Below, piece by piece: positions 1,969 to 3,373 of a DNA stretch of 8,688 nucleotides (positions are counted from its first letter, which is position 1; every line of letters begins with the position of its first letter). The position numbers and the translations under genes are program-made. The DNA comes from Escherichia coli (GTDB lineage: Bacteria > Pseudomonadota > Gammaproteobacteria > Enterobacterales > Enterobacteriaceae). Below the pieces are notes generated by a model. It was not told the DNA's origin. It ran no database searches and saw only the letters and a list, made by a program, of their open reading frames with translations. The stretch is taken from NCBI RefSeq assembly GCF_003334335.1, contig NZ_QOWQ01000068.1; one strand, given 5' to 3'.

Positions 1969-2424
1969 GTGAACCTACCACAAGATGGCATCAAACTGCA
2001 TCGCGGTAACTTCACCGCTATCGGCCAGCAGATCCAGCCTTATCTGGAGGACGGAAAATGCTTTCGCATGGTGCTTAAACCGTGGCGTGAGAAACGCAGT
2101 CTTTCCCAGAATGCACTCAGCCACATGTGGTACAGCGAAATCAGTGAATACCTCATCAGCAGGGGGAAATCGTTCGCTACCGCAGCATGGGTAAAAGATG
2201 CTCTCAAACACACATACCTCGGTTATGAAACCAAGGACCTGGTTGATGTCGTAACCGGCGAAATCACTACTATCCAGTCGTTACGCCATACCTCCGATCT
2301 TGATACCGGAGAGATGTATATCTTCCTGTGTAAGGTTGAAGCCTGGGCGGTGAATATTGGCTGCCACCTGACTATTCCGCAGAGCTGCGAGTTCCAGCAG
2401 CTCCGCGACAAACAGGAGGCGTAA
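1969..2424 (+). CDS. ybcN: YbcN-family nin-region protein (151 aa)
   Basis: GTG start at 1969 with GGAGG at 1958-1962. Protein [15 protein letters not shown]... is recognised as the DLP12 YbcN family and sits in the expected position before ninE. Stop TAA overlaps the ninE ATG. Confidence 0.85.
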
Positions 2425-2594
2425 TGGCTACACCGCTTATTCGTGTCATGAACGGACACATCTACAGAGTACCAAATCGTCGTAAGCGTAAACCGGAGCT
2501 GAAGCCTTCCGAAATACCAACACTGCTCGGATATACCGCCAGCCTGGTTGATAAAAAATGGTTGCGACTGGCAGCAAGGAGGAGTCATGGCTGA
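2424..2594 (+). CDS. ninE: NinE-family small protein (56 aa)
   Basis: Not in the ORF track because it is under 60 aa. ATG at 2424 after AGGAGG (2414-2419). Translation [56 protein letters not shown] resembles lambda NinE (basic, with a ...WD/IRWLRRRAR...-like C-terminus). Overlaps the ybcO start by 8 nt. Confidence 0.75.
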   Translation: MATPLIRVMNGHIYRVPNRRKRKPELKPSEIPTLLGYTASLVDKKWLRLAARRSHG

Positions 2595-2877
2595 TTTGAG
2601 AAAAGCAGCGCGTGGTCGGGAATGCCAGGTAAGAATCCCTGGCGTATGTAATGGCAACCCTGAAACGTCTGTACTGGCACATATCCGGCTGACTGGATTG
2701 TGCGGCACCGGTACGAAACCGCCAGACCTGATTGCCACCATTGCATGTTCTGCCTGCCACGACGAAATCGACCGCCGCACACATTTTGTCGATGCTGCAT
2801 ATGCAAAAGAATGCGCGCTGGAAGGTATGGCGAGAACACAGGTTATCTGGCTGAAAGAGGGGGTTATTAAGGCGTGA
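2587..2877 (+). CDS. ybcO: YbcO-family Cys-rich protein (DUF1364-like, putative metal-binding nuclease), 96 aa
   Basis: ATG at 2587 preceded by AAGGAGG; the ORF-track start at 2548 is a TTG. Multiple Cys ([11 protein letters not shown]...CSACHDE). Stop TGA overlaps the rusA GTG start (GTGA at 2874-2877). Confidence 0.85.
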
Positions 2878-3236
2878 ATACCTACAGCATCACATTACCC
2901 TGGCCTCCGAGCAATAATCGCTATTACCGCCATAATCGCGGGCGCACACACATCAGCGCAGAAGGGCAGGCATACCGCGATAACGTCACCCGAATCATTA
3001 AAAACGCAATGCTGGATATCGGCCTGGCTATGCCAGTGAAAATCCGTATTGAGTGCCACATGCCGGATCGCCGTCGCCGTGACCTGGATAATCTGCAAAA
3101 AGCCGCTTTTGACGCACTCACCAAAGCAGGTTTCTGGCTGGATGATGCTCAGGTCGTTGATTACCGCGTTGTGAAGATGCCTGTTACCAAAGGTGGGAGG
3201 CTGGAACTGACCATCACCGAAATGGGGAATGAATGA
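2874..3236 (+). CDS. rusA: RusA Holliday-junction resolvase (120 aa)
   Basis: Protein [26 protein letters not shown]...[10 protein letters not shown] matches RusA as I recall it, essentially full length. GTG start at 2874. Confidence 0.93.
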
Positions 3237-3373
3237 TGTTTGAGTTTAATATGGCAGAACTTCTTCGCCACCGCTGGATGCGCCTGCGCTTATATCGTTT
3301 CCCCAGTTCTGTTTTGACCGATTACCGAATACTGAGGAATTACGCCAAAACCCTGACAGGAGCAGGAGTATGA
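3233..3373 (+). CDS. ylcG: YlcG-family small protein (46 aa)
   Basis: ATG at 3233 overlaps the rusA stop (ATGA). Translation [46 protein letters not shown]; stop TGA at 3371-3373. Position and size match DLP12 ylcG. Confidence 0.65.

Follow-up and report, generated by a model that had tools for sequence, protein, structure and literature searches.

A phage 82/DLP12-type nin gene chain in a defective Escherichia coli prophage and a putative leader-ORF gate ahead of rusA

Does the tight packing of a nin operon indicate that the Holliday-junction resolvase encoded within it is made? The question is raised by a defective lambdoid prophage of Escherichia coli (assembly GCF_003334335.1, contig NZ_QOWQ01000068.1), of which 8,688 nucleotides, hereafter the window, were analysed. 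From the letters of this window an earlier note had described a nin-type operon at 1969-3373 with overlapping stop and start codons, had read the overlaps as classic translational coupling and had concluded that rusA is embedded in an intact operon. It had also stated, in agreement with the literature, that rusA of E. coli K-12 is poorly expressed; the gene is quiescent and is activated only by insertion of IS2 or IS10 upstream (PMC1636454, PMC4118853). The useful by-product of the present analysis is a conserved structured leader at 1787-1972, which the earlier note overlooked and which is less described than the overlaps. Taken whole, the region is in all probability best explained as the nin chain of a phage 82/DLP12-type prophage together with a leader-ORF gate that we infer at its entrance.

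The nin gene chain and its prophage context

The genes ylcH-ybcN-ninE-ybcO-rusA-ylcG are the nin ('ninR') gene chain of a lambdoid prophage of the phage 82/DLP12 type. The chain and its flanking features are:

161-283, + strand: ren remnant, the C-terminal 40 codons alone, marking the deleted immunity/replication region including pR
1871-1972, + strand: ylcH (orf33 of phage 82), a 33-codon leader ORF annotated in K-12, FORC_081 and phage 82
1969-2424, + strand: ybcN (orf151), GTG start, NinB/Orf-family recombination mediator
2424-2594, + strand: ninE, 56 aa, its ATG sharing one base with the TAA stop of ybcN
2587-2877, + strand: ybcO, 96 aa, ATG start, putative HNH-type nuclease
2874-3236, + strand: rusA, 120-aa Holliday-junction resolvase, GTG start
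3233-3373, + strand: ylcG (orf45), 46 aa, ATG start, final member of the chain
3374-3458, + strand: non-coding spacer of about 82 nt which breaks the chain at the boundary of the Q module, before the quuD ATG at 3459

Location, gene content and junctions all agree with a nin region, as the earlier note had proposed. The chain is flanked by the ren remnant and by the Q homologue quuD (3459-3842), the position of a nin region relative to the replication/ren genes on one side and late antiterminator Q on the other, and each of the five junctions between ylcH and ylcG is a stop/start overlap. In a live phage the nin block is transcribed from pR as delayed-early RNA. Such transcription under antitermination is lost here with the pR/cro/cII/O/P region, a property of the defective prophage and not of the nin gene block. 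The prophage is devoid of immunity and replication genes and also of parts of the terminase and tail genes. The ren fragment abuts a recT fragment, and downstream of the deletion a two-gene lipoprotein insert and then the leader precede the chain. A NinB/Orf-family gene comes first, ninE lies inside and the resolvase gene rusA follows downstream, which is the gene order given for nin regions (PMC4118853).

Profile searches identify the products of the chain downstream of ylcH. YbcN matches NF007281 with 277.8 bits (cut-off 164) as well as phrog_72, and differs from the K-12 protein at 9 amino acids with zero indels; its assignment as a NinB/Orf-family recombination mediator follows PMC4118853. 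NinE (NF007245, 140 bits, cut-off 88) is identical to the K-12 protein. YbcO matches PF07102 (7.7e-43), phrog_131 and PDB 3g27 (5e-63 across residues 1-96), the Pfam and PDB matches backing the 96-aa start. RusA matches NF007305 over residues 1-120 with 278.7 bits (cut-off 200) and phrog_34, and differs from K-12 by V27I and A39T only. Its residues D70, D72 and D91, the latter two of which we take to be catalytic, are present in the translation, as befits a member of the RusA family. The D70N variant of RusA is inactive (PMC1636454). YlcG matches NF033498 (75.4 bits, cut-off 30) and phrog_2705. Family and phrog profile searches returned no match for the ylcH product. The minus-strand ORFs at 2223-2780 and 2446-2784, for which the searches gave no family match, are taken as shadows of the coding strand.

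The junctions read GTGA for ylcH/ybcN (1969-1972, 4-nt overlap), TAATG for ybcN/ninE (2422-2426, 1 nt), ATGGCTGA for ninE/ybcO (2587-2594, 8 nt), GTGA for ybcO/rusA (2874-2877, 4 nt) and ATGA for rusA/ylcG (3233-3236, 4 nt). The last four of these, and the presence of two GTG starts (those of ybcN and rusA), had been given in the earlier note and are confirmed to the base; by opening the chain at 1969 it had the five genes from ybcN to ylcG and left out ylcH with its 4-nt overlap. The remaining three same-strand neighbour pairs in the window overlap as well.

An overlapping nin chain of this kind is already known and is ordinary for its lambdoid context; such chains and the quiescence of rusA have been on record since the 1980s and 1990s. 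K-12 DLP12, thousands of E. coli genomes and the phage 82 record of 1996 (orf33-orf151-orf56-orf96-rus-orf45; GenBank X92588, Mahdi et al. 1996) all have this chain annotated; in DLP12 and phage 82 genes, order, the five overlaps and the GTG starts are the same, and the K-12 annotation uses the start codons found here. A 2-kb query (window 1700-3700) is about 100% identical in many E. coli genomes, and the nin block was found in 4240 of 5426 complete E. coli genomes and is carried by plaque-forming phages as well, the region being 95-98% identical to phage 82 and live phages. At the FORC_081 locus, where the annotation is identical down to the start codons, the whole window differs at 4 of 8688 positions. 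Over 1785-3373 there are 62 substitutions against K-12 and 82 against phage 82, most of them synonymous, and zero indels. The copy here lies in a different defective prophage, adjoining ybhC, whereas DLP12 adjoins argU; two lipoprotein genes precede it in place of emrE-ybcK-ybcL-ybcM. The Q junction differs too: phage 82 orf45 overlaps its own Q by 4 nt, and in phage 82, GZ7 and CobraSix alike ylcG overlaps another Q gene by 4 nt without a spacer, whereas here and in K-12 a gap of about 82 nt precedes quuD.

Aligned to the K-12 DLP12 nin region, phage 82 and two live phages, all six ORFs are intact, with no indels, frameshifts or internal stops. The uninterrupted chain around rusA is thus as the earlier note had it; the contrast with K-12 that its wording implied does not exist. 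Intact ORFs do not set this locus apart, since K-12 has the same six ORFs, junctions and leader together with a quiescent rusA, and 'intact operon' does not predict RusA expression, since the same operon in K-12 needs an IS insertion. The prophage in the window is, in addition, without the phage early promoter pR. As first noted, the chain adds nothing new and is one copy among thousands.

Junctions of this sort are general among lambdoid nin regions. In the annotated nin regions of lambda, phage 82, HK022, phi80, CobraSix, GZ7 and phiES15, same-strand neighbours overlap at 37 of 38 junctions, in most cases by 1, 4 or 8 nt, including six of six in phage 82, and the junction type survives an exchange of genes (ninE/ninG of CobraSix overlap by 8 nt). 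The lambda ninR region, reportedly called a 'chain of interlinked genes' by Kroger and Hobom in 1982, overlaps at eight of eight junctions (4, 4, 34, 4, 11, 4, 23 and 4 nt). As in the chain here, ren and Q flank the region, a NinB/Orf-family gene comes first, and ninE and a gene for a Holliday-junction resolvase are among the members; the lambda region has a terminator at its entrance. It differs in encoding Rap (NinG) rather than RusA, in the extra genes ninC, D, F, H and I, and in its entrance, where a simple intrinsic terminator stands instead of a ylcH-type leader ORF and a covariance model found no H1 hairpin (see below).

A conserved structured leader upstream of ybcN

The segment 1787-1972 recurs in conserved form in more than 100 distinct phage sequences. 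Besides ylcH it contains the following predicted elements:

1787-1815, + strand: promoter-like site from a consensus scan, -35 TTGATT (1787-1792), 17-nt spacer, -10 AATAAT (1810-1815)
1817-1849, + strand: H1, RNA hairpin, core stem 1819-1828 with 1838-1847
1851-1877, + strand: H2, hairpin whose GGGA loop (1862-1865) is the G-rich Shine-Dalgarno stretch of ylcH
1907-1935, + strand: H3, terminator-like hairpin within ylcH, CAG-A-UGCA-GAAA-UGCA-C-CUG (1907-1926), CGA and U6 (1930-1935)
1943-1970, + strand: H4, hairpin in which the ybcN Shine-Dalgarno GGAGG (1959-1963) pairs with CCUC (1951-1954)

The promoter-like site maps onto the putative -35/-10 annotated in the phage 82 record X92588, which already marks ribosome-binding sites and an inverted repeat (H1) as well, and homology between phages begins exactly at this site. 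Of 102 distinct phage leaders, 84 have TTGATT as the -35 and 98 have a 17-nt spacer; the -10 reads CATAAT in 69, CATACT in 13, TATAAT in 12 and AATAAT in 6. The window thus carries a minority -10 variant, where K-12 and phage 82 have CATAAT. A dyad, TTGATT-N6-AATCAA (1787-1804), overlaps the -35 and the spacer, with 6/6 matches in 61 of these leaders and 5/6 in 21. By inspection it is neither an FNR site, for which the half-sites TTGAT/ATCAA fit and the spacing does not (8 versus 4), nor an IHF site, as the 3' TTR element is absent. Further downstream, a sequence scan revealed no convincing internal promoter or terminator upstream of rusA.

H1 exposes a conserved 9-nt loop, CUUGAACAA, at 1829-1837 (consensus CCUGAACAA). 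Nearly all of its 64 distinct variants fold as hairpins of 9-13 bp. A covariance-model alignment of 53 distinct sequences has 94.8% of cells paired, against 81% in shuffles, and seven of ten pairs change on both sides, with 60 compensatory cells; slid controls gave 22-44%. RNAalifold did not report H1 from an ordinary MAFFT alignment, in which its stems, being of unequal length, were out of register; the covariance-model alignment was needed. The G.U pairs occur in the + strand reading only. Each locus has a single copy, and about 0.9 Mb of related phage DNA contained no further one. H1 had been annotated before, as a 'possible regulator-binding site' in phage 82 and as IR4 in phi80. Rfam covariance models, isrK included, gave no match in the window at gathering thresholds, and on 1700-2100 at E up to 10 there were only two chance-level matches with E above 3. 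H1 was rejected as an N-utilisation nut/boxB element, there being no boxA-like sequence nearby and a single copy per locus; H1 and H2 are unlike the putL and putR sequences of HK022-type put RNA. A 7-nt leader complement to the H1 loop, seen by inspection in phiES15 only, is not conserved and was dropped as a long-range pairing.

The 3' arm of H2 holds the ylcH start codon (1871-1873). Across 22 distinct segments there are 11 distinct stems, nearly every position of which shows more than one type of base pair, and all 22 minimum-energy folds have the start codon, be it AUG or GUG, in a paired state; GZ7 and phiES15 have unrelated stems in the same arrangement. At H3 the terminator scan reported a simpler stem (1911-1928) followed by a T run; it was the consensus fold that gave the nested hairpin. 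Compensatory changes preserve this hairpin in three sequence families, with CCG..GGC-GAAA-GCC..CGG + AUUUUCU in GZ7 and CCCG-UGAG-CGGG + UUUUUCU in phiES15, a covariation carried by few Klebsiella-type leaders (GZ7, the identical ST11-VIM1phi8.1 and 2 LV-2017) and one Cronobacter leader. Because the leader set was collected with the 27-nt H3 core as search pattern, the invariance of that core within the set is by construction. H3 has a weak stem of about 9 bp, interrupted by a mismatch, and in the window-type leader an alternative fold that consumes its U tract is at least as stable; the U tract itself is intact here and degraded in K-12. H4 also pairs the first two bases of the ybcN GTG, and it is kept in five sequence variants at -13.6 to -14.7 kcal/mol. 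A search for related loci with a YbcN alignment added no diversity, since only relatives at least 95% identical came back.

In all leader types the ylcH ORF is open over 31-36 codons and ends with xTGA over the next start, whereas the peptide diverges. Literature searches for ylcH turned up essentially one transcriptome table of K-12, in which ylcH RNA changes alone, without ybcN-rusA (PMC8910356).

Translational coupling and rival readings of the leader

The 'classic translational coupling' of the earlier note had been deduced from the overlaps alone. Downstream starts do overlap upstream stops, and the Shine-Dalgarno sequences lie inside the upstream ORFs, as in coupled operons. Structural occlusion of the downstream site is predicted from ylcH to ybcN, through H4, and not at ninE, ybcO, rusA or ylcG; the start regions of ylcH and ybcN are the least accessible in the mRNA and the sole ones predicted to be occluded. 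Coupling along the whole chain is plausible. Independent initiation at ninE, ybcO, rusA and ylcG is equally possible, since these start regions are accessible and the Shine-Dalgarno sequences of the first three are strong, and for both reasons coupling downstream of ybcN may be weak.

It may be argued that the overlaps reflect genome compaction only, each gene initiating on its own Shine-Dalgarno sequence and coupling being limited to the shared mRNA. Overlaps of 1, 4 and 8 nt are the lambdoid default whatever the gene content, the Shine-Dalgarno pairing of ybcN, ninE, ybcO and rusA is strong (-10.3 to -11.8 kcal/mol) at workable spacing, and the start regions of ninE, ybcO, rusA and ylcG rank between the 33rd and 79th percentile of predicted accessibility. 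Against compaction stand a ybcN site at the 5th percentile, predicted to be occluded by a hairpin that is kept in five sequence versions, the weak Shine-Dalgarno of ylcG (-5.5 kcal/mol) and an xTGA overlap with the leader ORF that persists even when the peptide changes. Re-initiation after termination is, moreover, well documented at overlaps of this kind elsewhere, e.g. for orf45-anrP (PMC4825925). As the sole explanation compaction is rather unlikely. We assign a very low probability to the view that the whole block is a decaying remnant of a dead prophage, free of function and selection, whose intact ORFs are a coincidence of recent acquisition. Loss of the immunity and replication genes and of parts of the terminase and tail genes, the quiescent rusA of K-12 and an IS element within the nin block of at least one strain would fit with decay; set against them, the six ORFs are open and free of indels in comparison with K-12, phage 82 and live phages alike, the substitutions in ninE (3 nt/0 aa), ybcO (4 nt/1 aa) and rusA (7 nt/2 aa) are mostly synonymous, and the block recurs in 4240 of the 5426 complete genomes and in phages that form plaques.

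The leader could also be the phage 82-type equivalent of lambda tR2, which would stop unmodified pR transcripts and be overridden by an antiterminator, the hexamers being conserved for another reason, e.g. as a protein-binding dyad. Conservation of TTGATT-N6-AATCAA as a palindrome suits this reading. Terminators within the nin region make expression of Q N-dependent, and lambda has a textbook intrinsic terminator, which we take to be tR2, immediately upstream of ninB. As the H3 hairpin and U tract occupy the same relative position as this plain terminator, H3 may simply be the tR2 equivalent for pR transcripts. In lambda, tR2 is located close to the translation start of NinA (PMC4824070). Nevertheless, the -35, the -10 and the 17 nt between them are preserved together, their distance to H1 is constant, and an unrelated upstream sequence type still places TATAAT at the -10 position. 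H2 over the ylcH start, H4 over the ybcN site and the conserved leader ORF with its overlap would be left unexplained. A tR2 equivalent is a rather unlikely reading of the leader.

A putative leader-ORF gate ahead of the recombination genes

We prefer the reading that a leader-ORF gate keeps the chain, including rusA, poorly expressed; the leader 1787-1972 is most likely the place where expression of the chain is decided. RNA starting at the promoter-like site, or reading in from upstream, would fold into H1 and H2, and H2 would bury the ylcH start codon so that ylcH is rarely translated. With no ribosome on ylcH, H3 and its U tract would terminate or attenuate transcription and H4 would hold the ybcN ribosome-binding site closed, and little would enter the chain. 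Were ylcH translated, the ribosome would melt H3 and H4 and terminate on the ybcN start (GTGA); translation could then proceed through ybcN, ninE, ybcO, rusA and ylcG one after another, with re-initiation at the overlaps, initiation at their own Shine-Dalgarno sites, or both. Repression by ribosomes of terminators located in or just after ORFs has been described (PMC4824070). We predict that rusA in this prophage is as poorly expressed as in K-12. A counterpoint comes from K-12 itself, where rusA is quiescent even though the U tract of H3 is degraded.

Parts of the proposed gate have counterparts in known systems. In the IsrK-orf45-anrP region of Gifsy-1, likewise a prophage, in Salmonella, a promoter-proximal structured RNA and a partly read-through terminator are followed by a small ORF; its ribosome-binding site is buried in a hairpin, its stop overlaps the next AUG (AUGA), conservation is higher for the nucleotide sequence than for the peptide, and translational coupling has been shown (PMC4825925). 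The two leaders have no detectable sequence or Rfam relationship, and the downstream genes differ. The terminator lies before the small ORF in IsrK and inside ylcH here, and IsrK acts in trans on its own read-through form, whereas no such pairing was found in the present leader. The present leader also resembles ribosome-dependent attenuators with a terminator within or beside a leader ORF (the pyrBI type; compare the repression of lambda tR2 by ribosomes, PMC4824070) in that a short ORF near the putative promoter overlaps a terminator-like hairpin with U tract, where a ribosome following closely would prevent termination. Unlike in pyrBI, the start of the leader ORF is predicted to be occluded here, by H2.

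Beyond this locus we put forward, tentatively and as a conjecture that could well be wrong, that many lambdoid nin regions have at their entrance a cis-regulatory RNA leader, so far undescribed, and that 1787-1972 is such a leader. Transcription of the recombination genes (Orf/YbcN, YbcO, RusA or Rap) and their translation would both be under its control, and through these genes read-through towards Q would be as well; the leader would be the real cause of the silence of K-12 rusA unless an IS inserts downstream of the leader; and the invariant CUGAACA of the H1 loop would dock the protein or RNA that opens the gate. If the leader works as proposed, the 30-year-old observation of a silent rusA would obtain a concrete RNA mechanism. 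If the conjecture is true, a widespread regulatory element would stand at the start of lambdoid recombination modules, which most E. coli genomes carry.

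Gene chain and overlapping junctions

The locus belongs to a defective prophage other than DLP12, beside ybhC rather than at argU, and corresponds to the nin block of DLP12 and phage 82; its gene chain is already known and ordinary. ORF list, raw sequence and a scripted check reproduce every coordinate of the earlier note; with ylcH added, the genes of the chain are:

1871-1972, ylcH, 33 codons, TGA stop overlapping the ybcN GTG (GTGA, 1969-1972)
1969-2424, ybcN, GTG start, 151 aa
2424-2594, ninE, ATG start, 56 aa
2587-2877, ybcO, ATG start, 96 aa
2874-3236, rusA, GTG start, 120 aa
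3233-3373, ylcG, ATG start, 46 aa

The same three checks give the junctions ybcN/ninE as TAATG (1-nt overlap), ninE/ybcO as ATGGCTGA (8 nt), ybcO/rusA as GTGA (4 nt) and rusA/ylcG as ATGA (4 nt). The junctions thus stand as first described, but the range from 1969 began one gene late: since the ylcH stop overlaps the ybcN start, the chain contains five overlapping junctions. It ends with ylcG, followed by 82 nt to quuD (ATG at 3459), and the spacer 3374-3458 is a break in the interlinked chain. In phage 82, GZ7 and CobraSix, by contrast, ylcG overlaps a Q gene of another type by 4 nt, which identifies the spacer as a mosaic joint to the Q module.

The overlap pattern is real, yet it is the norm for its genomic context. 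Overlaps were counted in the annotated nin regions of lambda (ninB to Q, 8/8 junctions), phage 82 (6/6), HK022 (7/7), phi80 (4/4), CobraSix (4/4), GZ7 (5/5) and phiES15 (3/4), that is 37 of 38 junctions in the seven phages. In CobraSix, ninE overlaps the unrelated ninG, again by 8 nt, so that the type of overlap outlives gene replacement. The lambda nin genes were reportedly described in 1982 as "a chain of interlinked genes", and overlapping ORFs with their ribosome-binding sites are already annotated in the 1996 GenBank entry for phage 82.

Integrity of the block and loss of pR

A 2-kb query (1700-3700) has ~100% matches in many E. coli chromosomes, and 4240 of 5426 complete genomes contain it. 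Compared with E. coli strain FORC_081, the window as a whole has 4 differences in 8688 positions; in that strain, the NCBI annotation gives ylcH-like, ybcN, ninE, ybcO, rusA, ylcG and quuD with agreeing starts, exactly as in K-12 DLP12. Phage 82 (X92588) shares 95-98% identity with the block, and so do plaque-forming lambdoid phages, PhiR30_1 and Perceval among them. YbcN (NF007281), NinE (NF007245), RusA (NF007305) and YlcG (NF033498) exceed curated cut-offs, YbcO matches Pfam PF07102 and PDB 3g27, and PHROGs assignments agree with these family matches. Long antisense ORFs across the block are without any family match.

The alignment to the K-12 nin region suggested in the earlier note revealed neither indels nor premature stops. 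Likewise, 1785-3373 aligns without indels to phage 82, PhiR30_1 and Perceval, and the chain ORFs have no internal stops. Differences from K-12 are mostly synonymous: 3 nt changes in ninE leave its protein as it is, 4 in ybcO alter 1 aa, and 7 in rusA alter 2 aa. The operon is thus intact, as had been claimed, but this does not set it apart from K-12, whose copy is equally intact. Correct, too, was the statement that K-12 rusA requires an upstream insertion: the gene is quiescent and is activated by IS2 or IS10 (PMC1636454; PMC10956419).

Window 161-283 encodes the last 40 Ren residues only. In the near-identical annotated genome this ren fragment adjoins a recT fragment; therefore the immunity and replication region with cI, cro, cII, O, P, pL and pR is deleted, and the usual source of nin transcription is absent from this prophage. 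The prophage of that genome adjoins ybhC, on the lambda attB side, whereas DLP12 sits at argU.

Several observations concern the surroundings. Two lipoprotein-like cargo genes (769-1329 and 1326-1778) overlap by ATGA, the former with an LTGC lipobox and a later NCBI start at 952; a promoter-like site lies nearby at 712-739. Phage PhiR30_1 has the pair too; in K-12 and in phage Perceval the corresponding position is taken up by other genes (emrE, ybcK and others), which makes the ren-to-nin interval look like an insertion hot spot. Between quuD and the lysis genes, a porin gene (nmpC/ompC-like, 4031-5113, - strand) is intact and is followed by a strong terminator-like hairpin (3876-3893, - strand); in K-12 this gene is interrupted by IS5. 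In E. coli MS 124-1 (locus L211, 1817-2985, otherwise identical) a natural IS3-family element, ISEc52, lies within the rusA 3' end, where it alters the RusA C-terminus and parts rusA from ylcG. It resembles the laboratory IS2/IS10 insertions but sits downstream rather than upstream of rusA.

A conserved structured leader

Homology among otherwise mosaic phages starts exactly at 1785/1786. Approximately 120 loci were collected by a 27-nt ylcH pattern, together with divergent Klebsiella, Enterobacter, Cronobacter and phi80 examples. The leader spans 1787-1972, and its elements in the window are:

1787-1804, dyad TTGATT-N6-AATCAA covering the -35 and spacer of a sigma-70-like promoter site
1817-1849, H1, hairpin of 10-13 bp with conserved loop (C)CUGAACA(A/C)C
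1851-1877, H2, hairpin with GGGA loop, its 3' arm including the start codon of ylcH
1907-1926, H3, GAAA-loop hairpin within ylcH, then U6 at 1930-1935
1943-1970, H4, hairpin pairing the ybcN Shine-Dalgarno sequence and the beginning of its GTG

Among 102 distinct leaders the -35 is TTGATT in 84, the spacer 17 nt in 98, and the -10 CATAAT in 69, CATACT in 13, TATAAT in 12 and AATAAT, the version of the window, in 6. The phage 82 record annotates this site as a putative promoter. Most of these leaders retain the palindrome, one variant (TTGATTAT..ATAATCAA) being compensated. Its half-sites are FNR-like, but their spacing of 8 instead of 4 rejects an FNR site.

H1 occurs once per locus, in 64 sequence variants, and was not found in lambda with the covariance model. 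When 53 distinct sequences are aligned with the covariance model, 94.8% of cells are paired as compared to 81% in shuffles (slid controls, 22-44%), both sides change in 7 of 10 pairs, and 60 compensatory cells stand against 15 expected. Its many G.U pairs fit the + strand only; H1 is therefore an RNA element and not a palindrome for protein binding. H2 exists as 11 different stems with the ylcH start codon paired in 22 of 22 folds, and where this AUG becomes GUG its pairing partner changes along with it. The ylcH frame is open in all leader types (31-36 codons) and ends every time with xTGA on the next start; frame and overlap are retained even in phiES15, whose peptide is almost unrelated. 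The terminator scan flagged H3 as a simpler stem (1911-1928), the nested hairpin coming from the consensus fold; compensatory versions occur in GZ7 and phiES15, and in predicted folds of the window-type leader H3 competes with an alternative. H4 has five sequence versions of ~-14 kcal/mol, and the fold of the whole 156-nt leader has z = -4.4.

No Rfam family matches the leader or the window, and by Rfam and sequence comparison the leader does not belong to the nut, put or isrK RNA families. Databases present it as "putative promoter", "possible regulator-binding site" (phage 82), "IR4" (phi80) or a hypothetical 33-aa ORF; literature with incomplete coverage of phage 82 and phi80 yielded no description as a regulatory RNA.

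In the K-12 leader (L002, 9315-9470) the promoter hexamers are those of the consensus (TTGATT, 17 nt, CATAAT) and H1 is perfect. Four amino-acid changes in ylcH and a broken U tract after H3 (AAUUCUUUG) make this copy slightly degenerate when compared with the consensus of the phages. Promoter, H1, H2, ylcH, H3 and H4 are kept in Klebsiella phage KO-TP1 (L214, 600-800), L038, L015 and other IMG/VR loci, in which the first nin genes have other N-termini, one being annotated NinB. Hence it is the entrance of the nin block, not ybcN itself, that the leader accompanies.

A possible gate on chain expression

Translational coupling of the chain, part of the earlier interpretation, is suggested only by the overlap geometry. 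One main rival is compaction, with each gene initiating independently. Shine-Dalgarno pairing of ybcN, ninE, ybcO and rusA is strong (-10.3 to -11.8 kcal/mol), and by local folding the starts of ninE, ybcO, rusA and ylcG are predicted to be free of occlusion (33rd-79th percentile of accessibility); ylcH (15th) and ybcN (5th percentile) are predicted to be occluded. Taken as a whole, that interpretation is partly supported.

We infer that the leader may act as a gate on the chain. With H2 closed, ylcH would remain untranslated; H3 could then terminate or attenuate transcription, and ybcN would be held closed by H4. A ribosome translating ylcH would open H3 and H4 and arrive at the ybcN start, from where the chain would become readable. 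The gate is plausible because terminators in or just after ORFs, lambda tR2 included, are repressed by ribosomes (PMC4824070), because a structured leader with a small ORF and an AUGA-coupled gene has been dissected by experiment at Gifsy-1 IsrK-orf45-anrP (PMC4825925), and because lambda has a terminator, a plain intrinsic one, at the matching position upstream of ninB. The other main rival takes the leader merely as a tR2-type terminator for pR transcripts; the lambda terminator would suit it as well, but it leaves the paired ylcH start and the conserved ylcH frame unexplained. In a K-12 transcriptome table ylcH RNA changes alone (PMC8910356), which fits a short leader transcript, though the evidence is weak. 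With moderate, less than even probability, a conserved leader-ORF gate would control lambdoid recombination genes and account for the silence of rusA.
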